This document shows, in pieces, positions 1 through 36,550 of a stretch of DNA of 39,704 nucleotides; the first letter of the stretch is position 1; the number at the start of each line of letters is the position of its first letter. The DNA is from Escherichia phage vB_EcoP_PR_Kaz2018. The notes under the pieces are model-generated. The model had not been told where the DNA came from. It saw only the letters and a list, made by a program, of their open reading frames with translations, and did not search any database. Position numbers and translations under genes: made by a program. The stretch lies in the sequence record MN510331.1. One strand, 5' to 3'.

Positions 1-178
1 TCTCACAGTTCAAGAACCTCAAGTCTCCCCATAGGCCCTCTTTAAGTCCAGACCAAAGGCCCTACCCCAGTCTGTCATAAGGTTGGACCGATGGTCAAGA
101 CTTCAGGTCAACGATAGGTCAAGGCTATGGCTTAGGGAAGGACGATAGGTAGGGGCTATAGGTCTGTCTTTGAGTCTC
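1..178. repeat. Left direct terminal repeat (178 bp)
   Basis: Bases 1..178 are identical to 39527..39704 by direct reading; T7-like genomes carry direct terminal repeats of this order of size. Confidence 0.95.
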
Positions 179-204
179 TATCTGTATCAGACCTTGAGTC
201 ACTA

Positions 205-316
205 CCTACAGTCATAACCTCTACATCTCATAACCATAACTCAAAACCTACAGTCTAACTAACCTACAGTCATAGAACCATCGGTAACCACTACCTACAG
301 TCAGAGACCTACAGTT
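205..316 (+). repeat. Array of five CCTACAGT(C/T) direct repeats next to the left terminal repeat
   Basis: Copies at 205..213, 247..255, 263..271, 294..302 and 308..316, irregularly spaced. Confidence 0.8.
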
Positions 317-567
317 AATAGACACAAAGGTATAGACTTAAGGTCTAAGACATGTTAGTCAAAGACTATATCCTCTTACACCAAGGGGCCGACGATAGCT
401 TAATCAATATTATTTCAAATTACCTATTGACTACAGGTCCAGACTATGGCTTAATAGCTTCCGTCAACACGACACGGCAACAACCGGATAGTGAAGACGC
501 CTGGTCATCCAGGTTAAGTAGACAGCCTGATAAGTCATACGAACAACAGGCAGATGACAATAAGTAG

Positions 568-597
568 TTGACAAGATGTAACGATAAGATGTAAGCT
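568..597 (+). promoter_or_regulatory. Candidate host sigma70 early promoter (TTGACA, 18-nt spacer, TAAGCT)
   Basis: Perfect -35 TTGACA at 568..573 and TAAGCT at 592..597; spacer resembles the T7 A2/A3 early promoters as I remember them. Confidence 0.4.
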
Positions 598-721
598 GTA
601 CCACATCGAAACAACGGTGATGACCAACACTGAAATGGTCTACCTGAAGTCCTCTGACTGAAGGGAATGCTCTTTAACAATCTGGATAAACTCTTAATGT
701 GCGCCGATAGCGACTAACTAC

Positions 722-767
722 AGGGCCTTTGAGTCTACATCTGAAGGCCCTGACTGATAGTCACTAA
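722..767 (+). promoter_or_regulatory. Early intergenic element, copy 1: hairpin plus TGACTGATAGTCACTAA box; putative RNase III site
   Basis: 8-bp stem AGGGCCUU/AAGGCCCU (722..729 with 744..751), then the box at 751..767, directly upstream of a gene start. Confidence 0.45.
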
Positions 768-784
768 CTTAAAGGATGAACACT

Positions 785-1030
785 ATGAAACACTTAAGCA
801 CAATCACTAATCACAATGAAGTATTCGTGAACACTAAAGGTTATGCGTGGATTCAGCTTAAAGAGATGAGAGGAGCGCGTCACCGTGTGGTAGTTCGCAA
901 GGTCTCAAGCAAGCCGTTCAGCAACTACAGCGTAGATACTGTGCGTATAGACAACGAGACCTACCTGATAGATTCGCAGATAACCGTGAGTCCTACAGCG
1001 GGCGTCTCAGCTCCTTATTTCGCTAACTGA
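785..1030 (+). CDS. Hypothetical early protein (about 81 aa)
   Basis: ORF track 776..1030; AAGGA at 772..776 favours the second in-frame ATG at 785; no family recognised. Confidence 0.6.
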   Translation: MKHLSTITNHNEVFVNTKGYAWIQLKEMRGARHRVVVRKVSSKPFSNYSVDTVRIDNETYLIDSQITVSPTAGVSAPYFAN

Positions 1031-1043
1031 GAGTGATTAACTA

Positions 1044-1084
1044 CAGGTCGTTAGACTTATAGCGGCCTGACTGATAGTCACTAA
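1044..1084 (+). promoter_or_regulatory. Early intergenic element, copy 2; putative RNase III site
   Basis: 7-bp stem CAGGUCG/CGGCCUG (1044..1050 with 1063..1069) followed by TGACTGATAGTCACTAA at 1068..1084. Confidence 0.45.
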
Positions 1085-1113
1085 CACATACTTAACTTTG
1101 AGAGGATATAACT

Positions 1114-1623
1114 ATGGAACGTAACGCTAACGCATACTATGAGCTGCTGGCTGCAACCGTTGAGCTGTTCAATGAGCGTATTCAGTACGACGAAATAGCT
1201 GAAGGCGATGACTACTATGATGCGCTGCATGAGGTCGTAGACGGTCAGGTTCCGCACTATTACCACGATATTTTTACGGTGATGGCTGCTGATGGTATAG
1301 ACCACGAGTTCGAAGACTCTGGGCTGATGCCTGAAACCAAGGACGTAACGCGTATACTACAAGCTCGCATCTATGAGGCACTGTATAACGATGTGTCTAA
1401 TAGCTCTGAGGTGGTCTGGTTTGAGGCTGAAGAGGAAGACGAAAAGGCTGAATATTGGGTAGTTGACACTAGAACAGGCGAGATAATTGAGGCAGCTGTA
1501 TCACTTTACGAGGCTATTGCATGTGCAAAAGAACTCTATGAGGAAGGTTTTCACATGCAGGTCGAAGACATCAACGATAACGTAGTGTTCGATCCTGCGG
1601 CTGCTGAGGAGGACTGCGAGTGA
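1114..1623 (+). CDS. 0.3: Ocr-like anti-restriction DNA-mimic protein with a ~55-aa C-terminal extension
   Basis: Residues ~20-105 align with remembered T7 Ocr ([43 protein letters not shown]); strongly acidic; RBS GAGAGGA upstream. Confidence 0.9.
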
Positions 1624-1772
1624 TGGTAACTTATGGTCTCTGCCAGCACCACGTCACCAACGCCAGGCTTATGGTCAAGACCGGGCGATTAAACCACGAG
1701 GAGTCTATGCGTCTCTTGAAAGTGGTCTACAGGAGACGCAAGCGCATACACGACAGCTTACACGCTAAGTGA
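1623..1772 (+). CDS. Hypothetical small basic protein (49 aa)
   Basis: ATG overlaps the ocr stop (TGATG); GAGGAGGA at 1606..1613; below the 60-aa cutoff of the ORF track. Confidence 0.35.
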   Translation: MVTYGLCQHHVTNARLMVKTGRLNHEESMRLLKVVYRRRKRIHDSLHAK

Positions 1773-1779
1773 TAGACTA

Positions 1780-1820
1780 CAGGTCATCGAATGCTAGGTG
1801 GCCTGACTGATAGTCACTAA
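1780..1820 (+). promoter_or_regulatory. Early intergenic element, copy 3; putative RNase III site
   Basis: 7-bp stem CAGGUCA/UGGCCUG followed by TGACTGATAGTCACTAA at 1804..1820. Confidence 0.45.
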
Positions 1821-1839
1821 AACTGATAGGGGTTAACTA

Positions 1840-2007
1840 ATGAAATTTACAATCATCGCACTTTACATCGCCAGCATTCTGTCATGGCTAACTGCGGTCA
1901 TAGTCGATGGGAATGCACTACGTCTTGGCTGGCTGGCAGTGGACATAATATTCTCTCCGGTAGGGATCGTGCGCGGTCTACTGATGTGGATTGGACTGGC
2001 GGGATAA
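1840..2007 (+). CDS. Hypothetical small membrane protein (55 aa)
   Basis: Hand-translated MKFTIIALYIASILSWLTAVIVDGNALRLGWLAVDIIFSPVGIVRGLLMWIGLAG; two hydrophobic segments; follows element copy 3. Confidence 0.45.
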   Translation: MKFTIIALYIASILSWLTAVIVDGNALRLGWLAVDIIFSPVGIVRGLLMWIGLAG

Positions 2008-2010
2008 TCT

Positions 2011-2208
2011 ATGAGTCTTGCACTATTGATAGCCATAGGCTATGGACTTATCACCTACGTGCTGGTGAGAGACATCGACAAAGCGCGTAAAGTCTACAAA
2101 TTCAACTATGTACGTCTGGGCCGCTGGACTGTACGTCAACCTAACGGACGATTCATGCGCAACTTAGCGAACGTCTGGGACATAGCAACTATTGGGAGTA
2201 AACTGTAA
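2011..2208 (+). CDS. Hypothetical small protein with N-terminal hydrophobic helix (65 aa)
   Basis: ORF track; starts 3 nt after the preceding stop, suggesting translational coupling. Confidence 0.45.
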   Translation: MSLALLIAIGYGLITYVLVRDIDKARKVYKFNYVRLGRWTVRQPNGRFMRNLANVWDIATIGSKL

Positions 2209-2288
2209 TGAAAACCGTATACATTAACAAGCCATCTATCCGTTAGCCGTATAGAGCAATACAGCGTGACGTGTTCTTACATAGTCGC

Positions 2289-2468
2289 ATGAAGGCTGAG
2301 GGCCATAAGTCCGAACTGATGTGTCTGGCGTATGGTGGACGACCGATCACTGACGATGGTAGACTTTTAGTCTCAGGCTGGAAGGCGATAGACCAACGGT
2401 CAACCATCAAGCACACGACTCATGGTGACTTCAGTCATCTTCACGCTAACCCACTGATATGCAAGTAA
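2289..2468 (+). CDS. Hypothetical protein (59 aa from the internal ATG)
   Basis: ORF track 2271..2468 starts on GTG; first ATG at 2289; no clear RBS. Confidence 0.25.
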   Translation: MKAEGHKSELMCLAYGGRPITDDGRLLVSGWKAIDQRSTIKHTTHGDFSHLHANPLICK

Positions 2469-2473
2469 TTATG

Positions 2474-2496
2474 ACTTAACTATCACTATAGGACTC
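2474..2496 (+). promoter_or_regulatory. Phage-RNAP promoter upstream of the RNA polymerase gene
   Basis: ACTTAACTATCACTATA-GGACTC, +1 G at 2491; same core as the ten other copies. Confidence 0.7.
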
Positions 2497-2565
2497 AAGG
2501 TCTAAGACTCCAAGTGAAAGACCAAAGAGACTTTAAGTGAAAGACTAATAACAAGGACTTTAAGT

Positions 2566-5247
2566 ATGAGCGTCATCTCTATTGATAAACACGACTTCTC
2601 TGATGTGTCGAACGCCATTGAGCCGTTTAACCTGCTGGCCGACCACTACGGGCAAGATCTTGCAGTCAAACAGCTTCAGCTTGAGCATGAGGCATACACT
2701 GAAGGCGAGCGACGTTTCATCAAGAACCTTGAGCGACAGACTGAGCGCGGGGAACTGGCAGACAATCAGGTCGCCAAGCCTTTGATGCAGACTCTGGTCC
2801 CTAAGATTGCGCAAGCCGTCAAGGAGTGGCACGAAGGTCCAGACGGGAAGCTGTCAACCTCTCGTCCTAGCGTAGCGTTCACCATGTTGAGCACTGAAGA
2901 GAAGGCCGTCAAGGACCGCTCACTGCGTATCTCTTGCGAGTCTGCTGCGGTCATCATACTGAAGGTCATACTCTCCAAGCTGGTCAAGCCTGAGGGGATA
3001 CCAATTACACCGATGGCTTCCGCGATAGGTCGCACACTTGAGGATGAAATCCGCTTCGGTCGCATCCGTGACAAGGAGAAGGAGCACTTCAAGAAGGCGA
3101 TAGCTGAGAACCTGAACAAGCGAGCTGGGGTATCCTACAAAAAAGCCTACATGCAAGCGGTTGAGACCTCCATGTTGGAGCAAGGACAACTTGAAGATGC
3201 GTGGGGAACTTGGAGTCCTACAGAGGCTGTCCACGTTGGCATCAAGATGCTTGAGATTGTCATCCAGTCAACACAACTGGTAGAGCTTAAGCGGTACGGT
3301 GCTGGCAATGCAGCGGCTGACGTAGAGATGGTCCACCTGTCAGACTTCTGGGTCAAGAAGATGGCACAACGAGGATTCAGCCTTGCGGGTATCGCTCCAG
3401 TCTACCAGCCTTGCGTCGTTCCACCTAAGCCGTGGACTGGTGTCGTAGGTGGCGGGTACTGGGCCAAAGGTCGCAGACCGCTGCCCCTGATTCGCTTAGG
3501 GTCTAAATCAGCGGTGGCACGTTATGAAGACGTATACATGCCTGAAGTCTATGACGCTGTGAATATCATCCAGAATACACCTTGGAAAGTGAACAAGAAG
3601 GTTCTAGACGTGGTGAACATGGTCGAGAAGCTGAACAACACGCCTATTGATGACATCCCTCAGATGGAACCGCTGAAGCCTGAAGACTATGCGGGTGAGA
3701 CTGAAGAGGAACTCAAGGCATGGAAGAAGGCTGCTGCTGGTATCTACCGCCGAGAGAAGGCCCGGCAGTCACGCAGATTGTCACTGAGCTTTATCGTTAA
3801 CCAAGCGAACAAGTTCTCTCAGTTCAAGGCCATCTGGTTCCCGTACAACATGGACTGGCGCGGTCGCGTCTACGCTGTGCCGATGTTCAACCCTCAGGGT
3901 AACGACATGCAGAAGGGTCTCCTGACTCTGGCAGTCGGTAAGCCTATTGGTGCTGACGGTTTCAAATGGCTGAAGGTCCATGGTGCAAACTGCGCGGGTG
4001 TTGATAAAGTCACCTTCGAGGAGCGCATCAAGTGGGTGGAAGACAACCACGAAAACATCATGGCTGCTGCTAAGGCACCGATGGATAGTATTGAGTGGTG
4101 GGGCAAGTTAGACTCTCCGTTCTGCTTCCTTGCGTTCTGCTTCGAGTATGCTGGTGTAATGCACCACGGATTGTCTTACTCCTGCTCACTGCCGATAGCG
4201 TTCGATGGGTCATGCTCAGGGATTCAGCACTTTAGCGCGATGCTTCGTGATCACATCGGTGGACATGCAGTAAACCTAACGCCTTCCGGTAAGGTCCAAG
4301 ACATCTACCGAATCGTGTCCGACCGCATTGAGGGAGAGCTTAAAGTCCTGCTGGTTAACGGCACGGACAACGAGATGGTAACTCACGAGGACAAGAAAAC
4401 TGGTGAGATTACCGAACGCCTCAAGCTGGGGACACGAGAGCTGGCCCGGCAGTGGCTGACTTACGGCATGTCACGCAAGGTCACTAAGCGTTCAGTAATG
4501 ACTCTGGCCTATGGGTCGAAAGAGTACGGCTTCGCAGACCAAGTTTATGAGGACATCGTGATGCCAGCGATTGACTCAGGGTCTGGCGCTATGTTCACCG
4601 AACCAAGCCAAGCGTCCCGCTTCATGGCTAAGATGATTTGGGAAGCTGTGAGCGTGACCGTAGTTGCTGCGGTTGACGCGATGAAGTGGCTTCAGGGTGC
4701 TGCCAAGCTGCTGGCTGCTGAAGTGAAGGACAAGAAGACTGGAGAAATCCTGAAGCCTTGCCTTCCGGTACACTGGGTAACACCTGATGGTTTCCCGGTC
4801 TGGCAGGAATACCGCAAGAAGGATACCACTCGTCTGAACCTGATGTTCTTAGGGTCATTCAACCTTCAACCTACGGTCAACAAAGGCACGAAGAAAGAGC
4901 TTGACAAGCACAAGCAGGAGTCAGGCATTAGCCCGAACTTCGTCCACTCACAAGATGGTAGCCACCTCCGCAAGACTGTAGTCCACACGCATCGCAAGTA
5001 TGGCGTGATGTCATTCGCAGTGATTCATGATAGCTTCGGGACCATCCCGGCTGACGCTGAACATCTGTTCCGTGGTGTCCGTGAGACGATGGTCGAGACC
5101 TACCGCGACAACGATGTGCTGCTTGACTTCTACGAGCAGTTTGAATACCAGCTTCATGAGAGCCAGCGCGACAAGTTGCCTGAGCTTCCGAAGAAAGGTA
5201 AACTGAATATCGAAGACATCTTGTCTTCAGACTTTGCATTCGCTTAA
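2566..5247 (+). CDS. 1: Single-subunit DNA-directed RNA polymerase (893 aa)
   Basis: Colinear with remembered T7 RNAP over the whole length (e.g. FPYNMDWRGRVYAV, HGANCAGVDKV, DGSCSGIQHFSAMLRD, IHDSFGT, ending SDFAFA). Confidence 0.98.
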   Translation: MSVISIDKHDFSDVSNAIEPFNLLADHYGQDLAVKQLQLEHEAYTEGERRFIKNLERQTERGELADNQVAKPLMQTLVPKIAQAVKEWHEGPDGKLSTSRPSVAFTMLSTEEKAVKDRSLRISCESAAVIILKVILSKLVKPEGIPITPMASAIGRTLEDEIRFGRIRDKEKEHFKKAIAENLNKRAGVSYKKAYMQAVETSMLEQGQLEDAWGTWSPTEAVHVGIKMLEIVIQSTQLVELKRYGAGNAAADVEMVHLSDFWVKKMAQRGFSLAGIAPVYQPCVVPPKPWTGVVGGGYWAKGRRPLPLIRLGSKSAVARYEDVYMPEVYDAVNIIQNTPWKVNKKVLDVVNMVEKLNNTPIDDIPQMEPLKPEDYAGETEEELKAWKKAAAGIYRREKARQSRRLSLSFIVNQANKFSQFKAIWFPYNMDWRGRVYAVPMFNPQGNDMQKGLLTLAVGKPIGADGFKWLKVHGANCAGVDKVTFEERIKWVEDNHENIMAAAKAPMDSIEWWGKLDSPFCFLAFCFEYAGVMHHGLSYSCSLPIAFDGSCSGIQHFSAMLRDHIGGHAVNLTPSGKVQDIYRIVSDRIEGELKVLLVNGTDNEMVTHEDKKTGEITERLKLGTRELARQWLTYGMSRKVTKRSVMTLAYGSKEYGFADQVYEDIVMPAIDSGSGAMFTEPSQASRFMAKMIWEAVSVTVVAAVDAMKWLQGAAKLLAAEVKDKKTGEILKPCLPVHWVTPDGFPVWQEYRKKDTTRLNLMFLGSFNLQPTVNKGTKKELDKHKQESGISPNFVHSQDGSHLRKTVVHTHRKYGVMSFAVIHDSFGTIPADAEHLFRGVRETMVETYRDNDVLLDFYEQFEYQLHESQRDKLPELPKKGKLNIEDILSSDFAFA

Positions 5248-5261
5248 CAGGAGAGAGAGCT

Positions 5262-5477
5262 ATGAAATTTGCACACAAGCATACTGGCGTTAATGGTGGG
5301 ACTCAAATCGTGACCGTAACAGAACACAACGGCGCGGGTCTGGTGAAGACCACGGTCATCCCGACCAAGATGTCCAAGCAGCTTAACATCCCGTTCAAGA
5401 CTCTTGTAGATCTGGTCGAGTCCAGCCACGAGAAGTACCTGAAGGACGCAGTGTCCAAGCTGGAGCAGGCCAAATGA
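5262..5477 (+). CDS. Hypothetical protein (71 aa)
   Basis: ORF track; strong RBS AGGAGAGAGAG 6-8 nt upstream; lies between gene 1 and the first middle promoter. Confidence 0.55.
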   Translation: MKFAHKHTGVNGGTQIVTVTEHNGAGLVKTTVIPTKMSKQLNIPFKTLVDLVESSHEKYLKDAVSKLEQAK

Positions 5478-5551
5478 CAGACCTACAGTTACTGGCCTTG
5501 TGGCTGGGAGCACTAGCAGTATTCACTTTAATCCAACGCAGAAGAGGTTAA

Positions 5552-5574
5552 CCTAAACTATCACTATAGGATTA
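5552..5574 (+). promoter_or_regulatory. Phage-RNAP promoter
   Basis: CCTAAACTATCACTATA-GGATTA, +1 G at 5569. Confidence 0.8.
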
Positions 5575-5616
5575 GACTCAAGGTCATGACTCAAAGTCGT
5601 GGCCTTCATGATTAAC
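5573..5616 (+). promoter_or_regulatory. Late-type hairpin element (TAGACTCAAGGTCAT ... GTGGCCTTCATGATTAAC); putative RNase III site
   Basis: 8-bp stem AAGGUCAU (5580..5587) with GUGGCCUU (5599..5606); same element at 12860..12900 and 36453..36496. Confidence 0.5.
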
Positions 5617-5647
5617 CCTAACTAATCAATACAGGAGCTTTAACACC

Positions 5648-5828
5648 ATGTATCAGAACACTATCAACTTCGAGCGCATCCGTGAACGTCAGCAGACTTG
5701 AAGATTACATTCCGAAGGGCCGCAAGCTGAACAAGACTAAGCGGGGCGGAGGTGTCAAAGGCGCTTTCCGTAACGCTGAAGGCAAAGACTCTCTGGTTAA
5801 CCAAGAGAAGTATTTCGTAGGAGCATAA
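5648..5828 (+). CDS. 1.1: Gene 1.1 homolog, apparently interrupted by a +1 frameshift
   Basis: ATG 5648 with AGGAG RBS gives MYQNTINFERIRERQQT then TGA at 5699; the overlapping frame to 5828 encodes ...SRLEDYIPKGRKLNKTKRGGG..., matching the KGRKLNKTKR core I remember in T7 gp1.1. Confidence 0.4.
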
Positions 5829-5832
5829 CCAA

Positions 5833-6096
5833 ATGGGCCGACTTTATAGTGGCAACCTCAACGCTTTCAGAGCAGCGTGTAACAGGCTCTACCAGTTAGA
5901 CTTCTGCGTGATACAGCAGGAGGTACGAGGCCATCTGTCTCGGAAAGAGTGCATGAGACTTCAAGTCGAGGACCGAGCCGGTAACATCTTCGCGCTTGAG
6001 ACCTTCGCACACTACGATGAAGACGTGCTGTATAATACTGCAACAGACTACCTCAACGGTCTCGCTGACCATATCGACACATGGAGCAAAGCATAA
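5833..6096 (+). CDS. 1.2: gp1.2-like protein (dGTPase inhibitor family)
   Basis: MGRLYSGNLNAFRAA...IEDR..G....FAHYDEDVLYN aligns along its length with remembered T7 gp1.2. Confidence 0.9.
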   Translation: MGRLYSGNLNAFRAACNRLYQLDFCVIQQEVRGHLSRKECMRLQVEDRAGNIFALETFAHYDEDVLYNTATDYLNGLADHIDTWSKA

Positions 6097-7118
6097 TGAC
6101 AACTATTAAAACCAACCCGCACCGCGCTGTAGATTACTCTGAGTCTGGCGTTAAGAAGGCACTGGAAGCAGCCGGGTCTCTGGAAGCTGAAGTGAAATAC
6201 GACGGTGTGCGCCTGAATCTCCCGGTACTGCGTGAAGGTGAGACCTACTGGCTGAGTCGTGAGTCTAAACCTCTTCCAGCCTTGGAGTGGATGAACTCTG
6301 AGTTAGGGAATGCGTGGACCCAAGCTGACTGGCGATGGTTCCTACGTCAAGCTGGCTACGAAGGTGTGGGCATGATGATTGATGGCGAGGTCATGGTCAA
6401 AGGTGTAGACTTCAACACCTCCTCAGGTCTCATCCGAACGAAGTGGCTGAAGCCCAACAACGAGGAGTTCGCTGAATGCTATCCGGGCCGTGGTAAGAAG
6501 GTCCAGTTCTGGGTAGCCCGGTCAAGACTTAAGATTGTGGTCTACGGTGTCGTCGACATGACAACCATTGCTGACCCGAAAGCCGAAGGTCCTATCCATA
6601 GCGTAACCCGCCTGAAGGCCGAAGCTATAGTCCCTCTACTCCAGAAATACTTCCCGGAAATCGACTGGGTTCTCTCTGAGAGTCATACGGTCTATGACCT
6701 TGAGTCGCTCAACTCCCTGTACGAAGAGAAGCGTCTGGAAGGACACGAGGGTCTGGTAGTCAAGGACCCACTTGGCAAATATAAGCGTGGCAAGAAGTCT
6801 GGCATGTGGAAGATGAAGCCAAGTGAGGATACCGACGGGACCGTGTGTGGCCTCGTGTGGGGGACTCCTTGTAAGGCTAACGAAGGTAAGGTCATCGGCT
6901 TCGAGGTTCTGCTTGAGGACGGCATGGAGGTCTCCGCAACTAACATTAGTCGCGCCCTTATGTCCGAGTTCACAGAGAATGTTAAGTCAGACCCTGACTA
7001 CTACAAGGGGTGGGCTTGCCAGATTACCTACATGGAGCGGTTCCCAGATGGTTCCCTTCGTCATCCCTCGTTCAAGTGCTGGCGCGGAACGGAAGATAAC
7101 CCAACTGTTAAGAGTTAA
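6096..7118 (+). CDS. 1.3: ATP-dependent DNA ligase
   Basis: Adenylation motif KYDGVR; EGHEGLVVKDP, KRGKKSGMWKMKP and WACQITYME match T7 ligase; start taken at ATG 6096 (TAATG overlap, GGAG RBS) rather than track start 6081. Confidence 0.95.
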   Translation: MTTIKTNPHRAVDYSESGVKKALEAAGSLEAEVKYDGVRLNLPVLREGETYWLSRESKPLPALEWMNSELGNAWTQADWRWFLRQAGYEGVGMMIDGEVMVKGVDFNTSSGLIRTKWLKPNNEEFAECYPGRGKKVQFWVARSRLKIVVYGVVDMTTIADPKAEGPIHSVTRLKAEAIVPLLQKYFPEIDWVLSESHTVYDLESLNSLYEEKRLEGHEGLVVKDPLGKYKRGKKSGMWKMKPSEDTDGTVCGLVWGTPCKANEGKVIGFEVLLEDGMEVSATNISRALMSEFTENVKSDPDYYKGWACQITYMERFPDGSLRHPSFKCWRGTEDNPTVKS

Positions 7119-7129
7119 CTAAACATCAA

Positions 7130-7160
7130 CCCAGTGGTCTTATGACTGCTGGGTTTCCTT
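7130..7160 (+). terminator. Intrinsic terminator after the ligase gene (position of T7 TE)
   Basis: 10-bp stem CCCAGUGGUC/GACUGCUGGG with UUAU loop, then UUUCCUU. Confidence 0.6.
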
Positions 7161-7182
7161 GCGTCTGGGCCACCAGCTAGAC

Positions 7183-7205
7183 CCTAAGCTATCACTATAG
7201 GACAA
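7183..7205 (+). promoter_or_regulatory. Phage-RNAP promoter (variant TAAGCT)
   Basis: CCTAAGCTATCACTATA-GGACAA, +1 G at 7200. Confidence 0.75.
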
Positions 7206-7229
7206 CCATCAACAACCTAAGGAGACTCT

Positions 7230-7487
7230 ATGTCTAAGAACTTAATGTTCAACCGTTATTCCAATACCTTCCACCTGTCTCACAACCCGTTCGCTTGCAT
7301 TAAGCGCAACGAGAAGCTGGGATACTTCGGGAAGGCCGTTAAGCTGTCACCTACAGTCTTCGCTCTGATTACTCCCGGCAAAGCTGAAGAGGCTCGCCAG
7401 AAGCGTGAGACCGACGTACCTGTGGTATACACCAAGTGGCCTCGCGTTCGTCTGTTTATTGAGTTCGTGAAGGAGGTGATCTTATGA
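7230..7487 (+). CDS. Hypothetical protein (85 aa); gene 1.6 position
   Basis: ORF track; RBS AAGGAGACTCT upstream; assignment by position only. Confidence 0.7.
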   Translation: MSKNLMFNRYSNTFHLSHNPFACIKRNEKLGYFGKAVKLSPTVFALITPGKAEEARQKRETDVPVVYTKWPRVRLFIEFVKEVIL

Positions 7488-7930
7488 CTACTTATGATAA
7501 TATGATTATCAAGCTAATCGATATGAACGATGGTAATCCAGACCATTTATATAACTGTTCCTTCAATTGTGCTGGAGTTCCTTGTAACATCTGCCCCGCT
7601 AAGGATGATGACGATATGACCTTAGGTGAAATCCGAGCGATGGACCCGCGTAAATCTCATCTGAATAAACTTGAGGTAACTCCTACAGATGACCAGCCTT
7701 CCACTGAATCAATCGAAGGTGTCACTAAGCCTTCCCATTACATGCTGTTCGACGACATTGAGGCTATCGAAGTGATTGCCCGTTCAATGACTCGTGAGCA
7801 GTTCAAAGGGTACTGCTTAGGGAACATCCTTAAGTACCGCCTACGCGCTGGTAAGAAAGTCAGAACTTGCTTACTTAGAGAAAGCCAGGGCGAAAGTTGG
7901 ATTCTATCAGGAGCTGTTCGACCTGCATAA
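7484..7930 (+). CDS. Hypothetical protein with Cys cluster (148 aa); gene 1.7 position
   Basis: ORF track; strong RBS AAGGAGGTGAT; motif CSFNCAGVPCNICP; function not established from sequence. Confidence 0.7.
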   Translation: MTTYDNMIIKLIDMNDGNPDHLYNCSFNCAGVPCNICPAKDDDDMTLGEIRAMDPRKSHLNKLEVTPTDDQPSTESIEGVTKPSHYMLFDDIEAIEVIARSMTREQFKGYCLGNILKYRLRAGKKVRTCLLRESQGESWILSGAVRPA

Positions 7931-7941
7931 AGGTAAGTGCT

Positions 7942-8169
7942 ATGACGCGTGAAGAACTTCAAGCTGCATCGGCGAAGCGTAGAGCGCAAAGATTTTATCG
8001 TGCATACAAGGCGCTGCGTAAGGGTATGTCGATGTTCAAATTAGGACACAGGGAGTATTGTGATAGCGACCTCCTACCGTTTGCTTATAAGAAGACACCT
8101 AGTCTGATTATCAAGGTAGAGGAGTATGAATATTCTGATGACTGTGTTATGGTGAACCGCTATGCTTAA
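7942..8169 (+). CDS. Hypothetical protein (75 aa)
   Basis: Track ORF 7897..8169 starts on TTG; first ATG at 7942 with AAAGG 8 nt upstream. Confidence 0.55.
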   Translation: MTREELQAASAKRRAQRFYRAYKALRKGMSMFKLGHREYCDSDLLPFAYKKTPSLIIKVEEYEYSDDCVMVNRYA

Positions 8170-10654: not shown

Positions 10655-10870
10655 ATGATTAAACTTATCGAATTTCTTGGTCGTCTGGTGGTGCGTGGGT
10701 ATCGTCGTGCTGCGGTACTGGAACGAAAGGTAGAAAAGAAGACTGCGGACGGTGCGGCTGATGCTGCTGCTCTGGCTGACAAGCTGACCATAGCGTCACT
10801 GGAAGCTGGCATGAAGGCGCGTCAGGCTGACACCAAAGCTGACCAGTTGGCTCAGTTATTCAAAGCCTAA
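10655..10870 (+). CDS. Hypothetical protein (71 aa)
   Basis: ORF track; RBS AAGGGAGAA upstream; stop TAA lies inside the next promoter. Confidence 0.6.
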   Translation: MIKLIEFLGRLVVRGYRRAAVLERKVEKKTADGAADAAALADKLTIASLEAGMKARQADTKADQLAQLFKA

Positions 10871-10888
10871 ACTATCACCTTAGGGATG
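10866..10888 (+). promoter_or_regulatory. Phage-RNAP promoter, degenerate (CACCTTA), followed by a stable hairpin
   Basis: CCTAAACTATCACCTTA-GGGATG, +1 G at 10883; transcript begins with 10-bp stem 10883..10907 and a U-rich tract. Confidence 0.55.
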
Positions 10889-10935: not shown

Positions 10936-12856
<1,921 letters not shown>

Positions 12857-12859
12857 GTC

Positions 12860-12900
12860 TAGACTCAAGGTCATTCATAGCGAGTGGCCTTTATGATTAG
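12860..12900 (+). promoter_or_regulatory. Late-type hairpin element, copy 2; putative RNase III site (T7 R4.7 position)
   Basis: TAGACTCAAGGTCAT ... GTGGCCTTTATGATTAG; stem 12867..12874 with 12884..12891. Confidence 0.5.
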
Positions 12901-12920
12901 ACTAAAGCGGAGGATTAACC

Positions 12921-18433: not shown

Positions 18434-20002
18434 ATGGCTAAACGCGAAGGATTTGCCGCTGAAGGCGCGAAGTCAGTTTATGATAGACTGAAGAACGGTA
18501 GACAGCCATATGAGACACGCGCTCAGAACTGTGCTGCTGTCACTATCCCATCACTGTTTCCTAAGGAGTCAGACAACTCGTCTACAGAGTACACAACTCC
18601 GTGGCAAGCTGTAGGTGCTCGCTGCTTGAACAACTTAGCTGCAAAGCTGATGTTGGCATTATTCCCTCAGTCACCGTGGATGCGACTGACAGTCTCCGAA
18701 TATGAGGCAAAGACCTTGAGTCAGGACTCAGAGGCGGCTGCTCGTGTTGATGAAGGGCTGGCTATGGTCGAGCGTGTGTTGATGGCTTACATGGAGACTA
18801 ACAGTTTCCGTGTCCCATTATTCGAGGCGCTGAAGCAGCTTATCGTCTCAGGTAACTGCCTGCTCTACATCCCTCCTCCAGAACAAGGAACCTACAGTCC
18901 TATGCGAATGTACCGCTTAGTGTCCTACGTTGTTCAACGTGATGCTTTCGGTAACATCTTACAGATTGTGACTCTCGACAAGGTAGCGTTTAGTGCTCTA
19001 CCGGAAGACGTGAAGTCTCAACTCAACGCAGACGACTATGAGCCTGACACCGAGCTTGAAGTGTATACGCACATCTACCGTCAGGACGACGAGTATCTGC
19101 GCTACGAGGAAGTGGAAGGCATTGAGGTGACAGGGACCGATGGTTCCTACCCGCTGACTGCATGTCCATACATCCCGGTACGAATGGTTCGACTGGATGG
19201 TGAAGACTACGGTCGTTCTTACTGCGAGGAGTATCTGGGAGACCTGAACTCGCTGGAGACGATTACAGAAGCTATCACTAAAATGGCTAAGGTAGCCTCC
19301 AAGGTGATTGGCCTCGTTAACCCGAACGGTATCACGCAACCTCGACGTCTGAACAAGGCGGCTACAGGTGAGTTCGTGGCTGGTCGCGTTGAGGACATCA
19401 ACTTCCTGCAACTGACGAAAGGTCAGGACTTTACGATTGCCAAGTCGGTGGCTGATGCTATCGAGCAACGTTTAGGCTGGGCCTTCCTTCTTAATAGTGC
19501 TGTTCAGCGTAATGCCGAGCGAGTCACTGCTGAAGAGATTCGTTATGTTGCTGGCGAACTGGAGGCGACCTTAGGTGGCGTGTACTCAGTACAGTCACAA
19601 GAGCTTCAGTTACCTATCGTCCGTGTTCTGATGAACCAGCTTCAGTCTGCTGGAATGATTCCTGACCTTCCGAAAGAAGCGGTAGAGCCTACGGTCTCCA
19701 CTGGTCTGGAAGCGTTAGGTCGTGGTCAAGACTTAGAGAAGCTGACTCAGGCGGTGAACATGATGACTGGACTTCAGCCTCTGGCTCAGGACCCGGACAT
19801 CAACTTGCCGACCCTTAAGCTGCGACTCCTGAACGCTCTGGGTATAGACACCGCTGGACTACTCCTGACGCAAGACGAGAAGATTCAGCGCATGGCTGAA
19901 CAGTCGTCTCAACAGGCAGTAGTCCAAGGTGCTGGTGCTGCTGGTGCCAACATGGGCGCTGCTGTAGGTCAGGGAGCTGGTGAGGACATGGCTCAAGCCT
20001 AA
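18434..20002 (+). CDS. 8: Portal (head-tail connector) protein
   Basis: YETRAQNCA, TPWQAVGAR.LNNLA.KLMLALFP, YRLVSYVVQRDAFGN, RMVRLDGEDYGRSY, VTAEEIRYVA match T7 gp8. Confidence 0.97.
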   Translation: MAKREGFAAEGAKSVYDRLKNGRQPYETRAQNCAAVTIPSLFPKESDNSSTEYTTPWQAVGARCLNNLAAKLMLALFPQSPWMRLTVSEYEAKTLSQDSEAAARVDEGLAMVERVLMAYMETNSFRVPLFEALKQLIVSGNCLLYIPPPEQGTYSPMRMYRLVSYVVQRDAFGNILQIVTLDKVAFSALPEDVKSQLNADDYEPDTELEVYTHIYRQDDEYLRYEEVEGIEVTGTDGSYPLTACPYIPVRMVRLDGEDYGRSYCEEYLGDLNSLETITEAITKMAKVASKVIGLVNPNGITQPRRLNKAATGEFVAGRVEDINFLQLTKGQDFTIAKSVADAIEQRLGWAFLLNSAVQRNAERVTAEEIRYVAGELEATLGGVYSVQSQELQLPIVRVLMNQLQSAGMIPDLPKEAVEPTVSTGLEALGRGQDLEKLTQAVNMMTGLQPLAQDPDINLPTLKLRLLNALGIDTAGLLLTQDEKIQRMAEQSSQQAVVQGAGAAGANMGAAVGQGAGEDMAQA

Positions 20003-20020
20003 ACTATCACTATAGGAACA
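19998..20020 (+). promoter_or_regulatory. Phage-RNAP promoter
   Basis: CCTAAACTATCACTATA-GGAACA, +1 G at 20015; the portal stop TAA is inside the promoter. Confidence 0.8.
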
Positions 20021-20996: not shown

Positions 20997-21019
20997 ACTA
21001 AACTATCACTATAGGGAGA
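20997..21019 (+). promoter_or_regulatory. Phage-RNAP promoter for the capsid gene (closest to the full GGGAGA consensus)
   Basis: ACTAAACTATCACTATA-GGGAGA, +1 G at 21014. Confidence 0.9.
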
Positions 21020-36452: not shown

Positions 36453-36496
36453 TAGACTCAAGGTCATTACTATATGTAGTGGCCTTTATGGTTAAC
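36453..36496 (+). promoter_or_regulatory. Late-type hairpin element, copy 3; putative RNase III site (T7 R18.5 position)
   Basis: TAGACTCAAGGTCAT ... GTGGCCTTTATGGTTAAC; stem 36460..36467 with 36479..36486. Confidence 0.5.
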
Positions 36497-36550
36497 ACTA
36501 ACTAGTGGAGGCGACTCTACGTGAAAATCTGATAAACCGGGAGGGCAACT

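Follow-up and report, generated by a model that had tools for sequence, protein, structure and literature searches.

A candidate phage RNA polymerase promoter directly upstream of the polymerase gene in a K1F-type Escherichia phage

Can the RNA polymerase of a T7-like phage transcribe its own gene during infection? The question is raised by a 23-bp sequence, ACTTAACTATCACTATAGGACTC, which constitutes positions 2474-2496 of the 39,704-nt stretch of Escherichia phage vB_EcoP_PR_Kaz2018 analyzed here (MN510331.1, hereafter the window) and lies directly before gene 1, the gene of the single-subunit RNA polymerase. A first-pass annotation made from the letters alone had described it as a full-consensus phage-type promoter located 75 nt before the gene 1 start. 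The description holds in each of these parts: the sequence is exact and all of its invariant positions from -13 to +3 match, the distance from G2491 to the ATG at 2566 is 75 nt, and the promoter identity agrees with family membership, positional conservation, co-variation with the polymerase and identity to the published promoter PK1F from -13 to +2. We refer to the site as phi1.

The first 6 kb of the window are 95% identical over their whole length to coliphage K1F (DQ111067 / NC_007456, genus Kayfunavirus). Positions 1-8000 differ from DQ111067.1 by 466 substitutions (5.8%) and no indels, and both sequences are 39,704 bp long. Within gene 1, 128 of 138 differences from DQ111067 fall at third codon positions, and 124 of the 133 altered codons still encode the same amino acid. 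A single difference (position 2510) falls within the 132 bp ahead of the start codon, and the 23-mer is identical.

Membership of phi1 in the promoter family of the phage

The window contains 10 strong promoter sites, all on the + strand and all at gene boundaries, with +1 positions at 2491, 5569, 7200, 8516, 17194, 20015, 21014, 25338, 32614 and 38869. Their family consensus reads (A/C)CT(A/T)AACTATCACTATAGG, and the sites other than 2491 correspond to T7 phi1.1, phi1.6, phi2.5, phi6.5, phi9, phi10, phi13, phi17 and phiOR (Table 1). At every invariant position from -13 to +3 phi1 agrees with this consensus, while -17 (A/C) and -14 (A/T) are variable positions within the family; the CACTATAGG core is present, as in the repeated consensus of the genome itself, and the specificity bases AACTAT are those of every other K1F site. 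Searching the window for the phi1 pattern with up to three mismatches yields 3 matches against 0.00 expected from shuffles. A weight matrix built from the other nine strong sites scores phi1 at 31.9 bits (leave-one-out; the family range is 26.5-37 bits), and the best match to the matrix outside the family reaches 14 bits in the window. A chance origin of phi1 is excluded by the pattern counts and the matrix score.

The site lies in the 97 nt that separate gene 1 from the last of the small early genes, is intergenic and shares the + orientation of the genes. The 23-mer starts 6 nt past the stop codon of the upstream ORF (2466-2468) and ends 70 nt before the ATG. Alignment with T7-type promoters places the predicted +1 of phi1 at G2491. 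The initiating bases, GGACTC, are class II-like and resemble those of early-region sites (GGAT, GGAC); they depart from the GGGAGA of class III (late) promoters, a start which in this family is restricted to the phi10-type site at 21014. Compared with the late promoters, the output of phi1 may be modest. Nor does phi1 fall among end promoters of the phiOL/phiOR type, as it lies 2.5 kb from the left end. No match to the matrix exceeds 8 bits in the window to the left of 2491, so a phiOL equivalent is lacking there. Together phi1 and gene 1 have the layout of an autogene, with the cognate promoter directly upstream and no terminator-like site between the two.

A characterized promoter provides an external reference. 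PK1F, given as gacatggctcaagCCTAAACTATCACTATAGG and also written ...CCTAAACTATCACTATAGG (supplement, PMC12218169), was used with the full-length K1F polymerase in Halomonas and E. coli (PMC12218169); the on-target effect with the cognate polymerase was approximately 46,000-fold, and cross-talk with other phage promoters was slight (PMC12218169). PK1F is the window site at 20015. It is identical to phi1 over -13 to +2, and the two differences, at -17 and -14, are both at family-variable positions. Judging from these correspondences, phi1 is very likely a T7-group single-subunit RNA polymerase promoter of the K1F specificity class.

A weaker promoter-like site, CCTAAACTATCACCTTAGGGATG, scoring 23.9 bits, is found at 10866-10888 (+1 at 10883) in the gene 3.5-4 region of the window, and a similar weak site is present in L025, one of the compared IMG/VR loci.

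Table 1. Positions of the promoter, leader, gene and reference features in the window.
Feature	Position	Strand	Basis or remark
Host sigma-70 early promoter, A1-like	427..463	+	92% identical to EcoDS1 'host RNAP promoter' 469-505
Phage RNA polymerase promoter phi1 (-17 to +6), K1F specificity	2474..2496	+	exact sequence, matrix score, EcoDS1 annotation, PK1F match
Predicted transcription start, +1 G	2491..2491	+	alignment to T7-type consensus TATA/GG
75-nt 5' leader of the phage-polymerase gene 1 transcript, A-rich, unstructured	2491..2565	+	
Leader repeat unit 1, GACTCAAGGTCTAAGACT	2492..2509	+	first 11 nt are the 5' arm of the R1.1-type hairpin, 3' arm missing
Leader repeat unit 2, GACTCCAAGTGAAAGACC	2506..2523	+	
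Leader repeat unit 3, GACTTTAAGTGAAAGACT	2529..2546	+	includes the first GACTTTAAGT
Translation initiation region, AAGGACTTTAAGTATG	2553..2568	+	Shine-Dalgarno AAGGA, second GACTTTAAGT, start codon
Gene 1, single-subunit RNA polymerase, 893 aa	2566..5247	+	ORF; annotated in K1F records
gp1 promoter-specificity loop codons, residues 749-780	4810..4905	+	alignment with T7 gp1
phi1.1-type promoter, next family member	5552..5574	+	R1.1-type RNase III hairpin directly after it
Early terminator TE (hairpin) behind the ligase gene, end of host-polymerase transcripts	7127..7160	+	sequence
phi9-type family member (+1 20015)	19998..20020	+	sequence equals published PK1F
phi10-type family member (+1 21014)	20997..21019	+	class III start GGGAGA
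phiOR-type site	38869 (+1)	+	family matrix

The gene 1 leader and the early region around it

The leader from 2491 to 2565 has an unusual composition: 43% of its nucleotides are A, which places it in the top 0.2% of 75-nt windows, its A+T content is 62.7% against 50% in the genome (top 2.3% of windows), and GAC occurs six times. Four degenerate copies of RGACTYYAAGT(GAAAGAC), which start at 2492, 2506, 2529 and 2556, make up the leader. The two leader repeats that the first-pass annotation placed at 2530..2560 are recovered as GACTTTAAGT, which occurs at 2529-2538 and 2556-2565, its only two + strand copies in the window, where 0.04 are expected. The leader folds no better than shuffled sequences (z = +1.13 for the minimum free energy), contains neither inverted repeats nor a tandem repeat detectable by TRF, and has no credible Rfam match, the only match being a spurious snoRNA (E = 0.27). 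On these fold, repeat, TRF and Rfam results the readings of the leader as a riboswitch, an attenuator or an RNase III site were rejected. We read it as an open, A-rich translation leader, for whose repeats a protein-binding or replication role may be considered.

The R1.1-type RNase III hairpins at 5575, 12862 and 36455 have as their 5' arm the same 11 nt, GACTCAAGGTC, with which the leader begins; their 3' arm, GTGGCCTTTATGATTA, is absent from the leader. Set against the T7-type R1 site, a hairpin with 5' arm ACTCAAGGTCAT and 3' arm GTGGCCTTTATGATT, the leader has the 5' 11-mer only. The three complete hairpins, TAGACTCAAGGTCAT...GTGGCCTTTATGATTA, span 5575-5620, 12862-12905 and 36455-36500 and occupy the positions of T7 R1.1, R4.7 and R18.5; they closely resemble the sequence downstream of T7 phi1.1A, which we take to be the R1.1 RNase III site. 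Another hairpin type, CTACAGG...GGCCTGACTGATAGTCACTAA, is repeated in the window at 715-775, 1038-1090 and 1770-1825, ahead of genes 0.2, 0.3 and 0.36, and probably represents RNase III sites of the early region; gene 1 is not preceded by a hairpin of this type.

At the downstream end of the leader, AGGACTTTAAGTATG (2554-2568) matches the initiation region of T7 gene 1.1 (T7 5995-6009) in 15 of 15 positions (E = 6e-4). The initiation region is kept in nine of ten aligned Kayfunavirus-type sequences, with a single substitution in one of the nine. The shared AGGACTTTAAGTATG could be a strong ribosome-binding cassette or a trace of rearrangement. Common descent of the leader with the T7 phi1.1B/origin leader was considered and rejected, as the match is confined to these 15 nt. 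The epsilon translational enhancer, TTAACTTTA, is known from the T7 gene 10 leader; it is absent from the window, and the GACTTTAAGT repeats are therefore not an epsilon element as defined.

The gene 1 product is 64% identical to T7 gp1, and the equivalents of T7 R746, N748, R756 and Q758 are R756, N758, N766 and Q768. A scan of the + strand between the early promoters and gene 1 reveals no terminator-like site. The terminator TE is cited at the same position in K1F (PMC4099482). A simple scan found no sigma-70 promoter of the T7 minor promoter C kind overlapping phi1, although the same scan also missed known early promoters. The left end of the window (180-320) carries arrays of the short direct repeats CCTACAGTC and ACCTACAGT; in other Kayfunavirus loci the repeat words of the corresponding region are different.

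Conservation and re-tuning of the site, and comparison with other phages

A 161-nt segment around phi1 is present in 220 phage records, each covering at least 80% of the segment; they derive from Escherichia, Salmonella, Enterobacter, Citrobacter, Cronobacter and other phages and essentially represent the genus Kayfunavirus. We fetched 80 IMG/VR loci with relatives of gp1 and derived a promoter consensus for each locus. Loci with a gp1 at least 79% identical to that of the window were taken as Kayfunavirus-type (n = 21), and in every one of the 21 a promoter matching the consensus of that locus lies 75-87 nt upstream of the gene 1 start codon.

The consensus itself is not constant within the clade, which comprises three specificity classes: AACTATCAC in the K1F type, AACCCTCAC in GW1, EcpYZU01 and two further loci (L022, L046), and AGGTACAC in L020. 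The genome-wide core is AAACCCTCACTATAGG in the four members of the second class and AAGGTACACTATAGG in L020. At -12 to -8 the gene 1 site has, in all three classes, the bases of its own lineage: in the switched lineages it reads ACCCT (D748/R756 loops) or AGGTA (K748 loop), like the rest of the respective genome. The residues equivalent to T7 N748 and R756 are N/N in K1F and Ro45lw and D/R in GW1 and EcpYZU01; the T3-like locus L047 likewise combines D/R at 748/756 with ACCCT promoters, and the L020 polymerase has K at 748 and a rearranged 755-758 segment. By comparison of these sequences, the site at the phi1 position is re-tuned three times to new polymerase specificities, and a site repeatedly re-tuned to a changing polymerase would be one that this polymerase uses. 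We regard the co-variation as the strongest argument for function short of experiment. Conservation and co-variation would speak for binding or initiation by the polymerase at the site, not for a selected benefit of more polymerase; downstream-gene transcription, replication priming and genome entry are alternative benefits, not distinguished by these patterns.

The site also shows variation between lineages. In the Ro45lw subgroup (L005, L016-L018, L024, L025) CACTAAAGG consistently replaces CACTATAGG in the site approximately 81 nt ahead of gene 1; in Ro45lw itself (L005), scanned over the whole genome, this variant occurs only before gene 1, and the other promoters have TATAGG or TGTAGG. 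The EcpYZU01 site before gene 1 is CACTGTAGG. Given these variants, promoter strength before gene 1 may differ between lineages. The Ro45lw record annotates other promoters and omits this one. A further difference emerges when 12800-12880 of the window is set against 12420-12500 of Ro45lw: in Ro45lw and its relatives the RNase III hairpin before gene 5 has a promoter, GCTTAACTATCACTGTAGGATAG, immediately upstream, and the window keeps this hairpin but lacks the promoter.

Other genera are arranged differently. The 600 nt upstream of gene 1 contain no promoter in any of 54 evaluable loci of the T7, T3, K11 and KP32 types, with gp1 58-64% identical. In most of them the leftmost phage promoter is of the phiOL type and lies 1.1-3.4 kb upstream of gene 1, and an R1-kind RNase III hairpin is situated just upstream of gene 1 where the sequence was inspected. 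The T7 record gives 405 as the position of phiOL; the minor E. coli promoter C (3113) lies immediately ahead of gene 1 there, and phi1.1A (5848) is the first T7 promoter downstream. The first-pass statement that T7 gene 1 is transcribed by the host enzyme only and that the first phage promoter follows it is thus overstated, as phiOL lies upstream of gene 1. T7 phiOL is regarded as weakly used, and polymerase-mediated genome entry has been attributed to it (PMC6171733). Among the enterobacterial T7-like phages examined the adjacent promoter is a hallmark of Kayfunavirus, coinciding with the lack of phiOL and of the R1 hairpin.

The nearest counterpart of phi1 is the site annotated as 'phi' in EcoDS1 (EU734172, 2244-2266), which has the same 23 bp, the same 75-nt distance and the same leader. 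Nothing substantive differs between the two, the EcoDS1 site being the direct ortholog of phi1 from a sister species within the genus. The K1F records DQ111067 and AM084414 list no promoter among the features shown for their first 8 kb. Within T7, the class II promoters (phi1.1A/B, phi1.3 and others) resemble phi1 in being 23-bp promoters with the CACTATAGG core and a non-GGGAGA start ahead of early and middle genes. They differ in specificity bases, which are AACTAT in K1F and CGACT in T7, with N at the R756 position of the K1F loop, and in order: the first class II promoter comes after gene 1 in T7, but before it in the window. T7 phiOL, in turn, shares with phi1 the status of the leftmost phage promoter, a position upstream of gene 1 and the capacity in principle for self-transcription. 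It is, however, placed 2.8 kb upstream, at the genome end and before the host promoters, whereas phi1, with its dedicated leader, lies 75 nt from the ATG.

More distant phages offer published parallels. A phage promoter immediately ahead of the polymerase gene, for which self-amplification or autoregulation was proposed, has been described as phi1 in the T7-like Pseudomonas phage LUZ100 (PMC10134795) and as phi-A8 in the Vibrio phage phiA318 (PMC4099482). Unlike in K1F, the LUZ100 promoter was mapped by ONT-cappable-seq and resides inside a MarR/integrase lysogeny module (PMC10134795), and the phiA318 promoter also precedes a kinase gene (PMC4099482). Both phages are distant from K1F. In view of the EcoDS1 annotation of the homologous 23 bp (EU734172) and the LUZ100 and phiA318 reports, the novelty implied by the first-pass annotation does not stand. 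Promoters of this kind are known, the ortholog of phi1 is annotated in EcoDS1, and the genus-wide co-variation and the reciprocal pattern of phiOL and R1 are small additions. An engineered counterpart exists as well: Dubendorff and Studier in 1991 reportedly constructed a T7 autogene, in which the cognate promoter drives the polymerase gene in positive feedback. Its architecture is that of phi1 and gene 1, but the T7 autogene is synthetic and needed lac repression and lysozyme for cloning, whereas that of K1F occurs naturally and works within a brief lytic programme. The term 'autogene' for the T7 construct appears in PMC6395690. SP6 was tried as a precedent and dismissed: no strong SP6 promoter is found before its polymerase gene, and a sigma-70-like TTGACT...TAAGAT occurs there instead. 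One of the fetched loci, a 5.7-kb 'viral' contig (L035, IMGVR_UViG_3300009034_000458), has a T7-like gene 1 and no T7-type promoters; its upstream sequence is unlike phage DNA, and the source may be an expression-strain construct.

A probable middle promoter for gene 1 and the alternatives

We consider it highly probable that phi1 is a genuine middle (class II-like) promoter, placed before gene 1, for the phage's own single-subunit RNA polymerase. A literature search returned no mapped transcript 5' end for K1F or its relatives among the searchable literature. Under the proposed course of infection, host RNA polymerase would start early at the left-end sigma-70 promoters (427-463 and probably about 568) and read, without an intervening terminator, through gene 1 to TE, giving rise to the first phage polymerase. 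Since the host enzyme can make the first gene 1 mRNA, the arrangement poses no bootstrapping problem. The newly made phage polymerase would recognize ACTTAACTATCACTATA, presumably initiate at G2491 and produce the 75-nt A-rich leader with its strong ribosome-binding region, gene 1 and the downstream DNA-metabolism genes; phage polymerases of this kind ignore TE. Gene 1 would then be both an early and a middle gene. Polymerase synthesis would become independent of the host enzyme and, as follows from the promoter layout before gene 1, self-reinforcing, to an extent that we can only presume. If T7 is a guide, the lysozyme gp3.5 would break the loop by damping class II promoters. Positive feedback of the polymerase on its own gene, the idea of the first-pass annotation, is a plausible consequence of this layout.

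The most serious alternative, though an unlikely one, is that phi1 was selected as the leftmost phage promoter, a replacement for phiOL serving genome entry, end-proximal transcription or concatemer processing, in which case its place ahead of gene 1 would be incidental and self-transcription a by-product. The reciprocal distribution agrees with this: Kayfunavirus-type genomes go without phiOL (nothing above 8 bits left of 2491 in the window, none annotated at the left end of EcoDS1), and most T7-, T3-, K11- and KP32-type loci have a phiOL-type site and none a promoter within 600 nt of gene 1. The attribution of polymerase-mediated genome entry to phiOL (PMC6171733) points the same way. A promoter 2.5 kb from the left end could not, however, serve entry from the very end, and the fixed 75-87 nt spacing with the conserved leader and ribosome-binding region points to gene 1 expression. 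In T7 the first several hundred bp enter the cell unaided. Still less probable is a role of phi1 and its A/T-rich leader as a replication origin, alone or in addition, comparable to the primary origin of T7 (phi1.1A/B with an AT-rich region), where the polymerase transcript primes DNA synthesis. The A+T enrichment described above would suit an origin but is modest. The leader shares 15 nt with the T7 gene 1.1 initiation region, which adjoins the T7 origin region downstream of phi1.1B, yet beyond these nucleotides it has no significant similarity to the T7 origin. On the side of an origin, too, K1F has one promoter only at the phi1.1 position, with an RNase III hairpin directly after it. A single bottom-strand TGGTC (GACCA at 2520), a candidate primase site by the specificity of T7 primase, is a pentamer expected by chance. 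An origin role, moreover, would not exclude gene 1 transcription.

Two further readings carry very little weight. That phi1 is mainly an RNA-level signal resembling a promoter, either a degenerate R1-like RNase III site or a translational leader, is suggested by the hairpin 5' arm GACTCAAGGTC at 2492, by the R1 hairpin that other genera have at exactly the position of phi1 and by the repeated GACTYYAAGT motifs of the leader. We judge it very improbable: the 3' arm is absent, the fold is unremarkable and inverted repeats are lacking, and the tracking of the polymerase specificity loop by -12 to -8 would be left unexplained. Least credible of all is the view that phi1 goes unused and resembles a promoter by chance or as a relic. 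The omission of the site from the Ro45lw annotation would fit, but a score of 31.9 bits with 0 expected by chance, and retention in 21 of 21 Kayfunavirus-type loci with three re-tunings, speak strongly against it.

Beyond the middle promoter itself, a broader scenario can be drawn, which we put forward tentatively and hold to be somewhat less than an even prospect: in Kayfunaviruses the promoter-leader cassette might have replaced R1 and the end-proximal phiOL, creating a natural autogene for genus-specific, rapid and host-independent build-up of polymerase, perhaps offsetting the gene 0.7 kinase that K1F lacks and perhaps also acting as a replication origin, with a feedback that measurably shapes infection timing.

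Several practical points follow the identification of phi1. Genomes of the K1F type should carry its annotation. Where K1F is engineered for therapy or as a reporter, DNA inserted ahead of gene 1 can interfere with a promoter on which polymerase synthesis probably draws. As a natural self-transcribed phage polymerase gene, phi1-gene 1 would be a design reference for autogene circuits. The comparison of Kayfunavirus, with a promoter before gene 1 and without phiOL, and the other genera examined, with an RNase III site there and a phiOL-type promoter upstream, bears on regulatory rewiring and on promoter-polymerase co-evolution.

Two minor observations concern the sequence records. The transition/transversion ratio between the window and DQ111067.1 is only 1.2 (257/209), and the differences are almost all synonymous third-codon changes. 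Such synonymous-heavy, indel-free divergence is unusual for natural divergence, and the window may be an engineered or recoded copy. The gp0.38 frame of AM084414 (window 2208-2468) has an in-frame TAG at codon 13 in the window and in DQ111067, and two compensating 1-nt indels separate the two K1F records there, which is probably a sequencing difference; gp0.38 of EcoDS1 is longer, at 132 aa.
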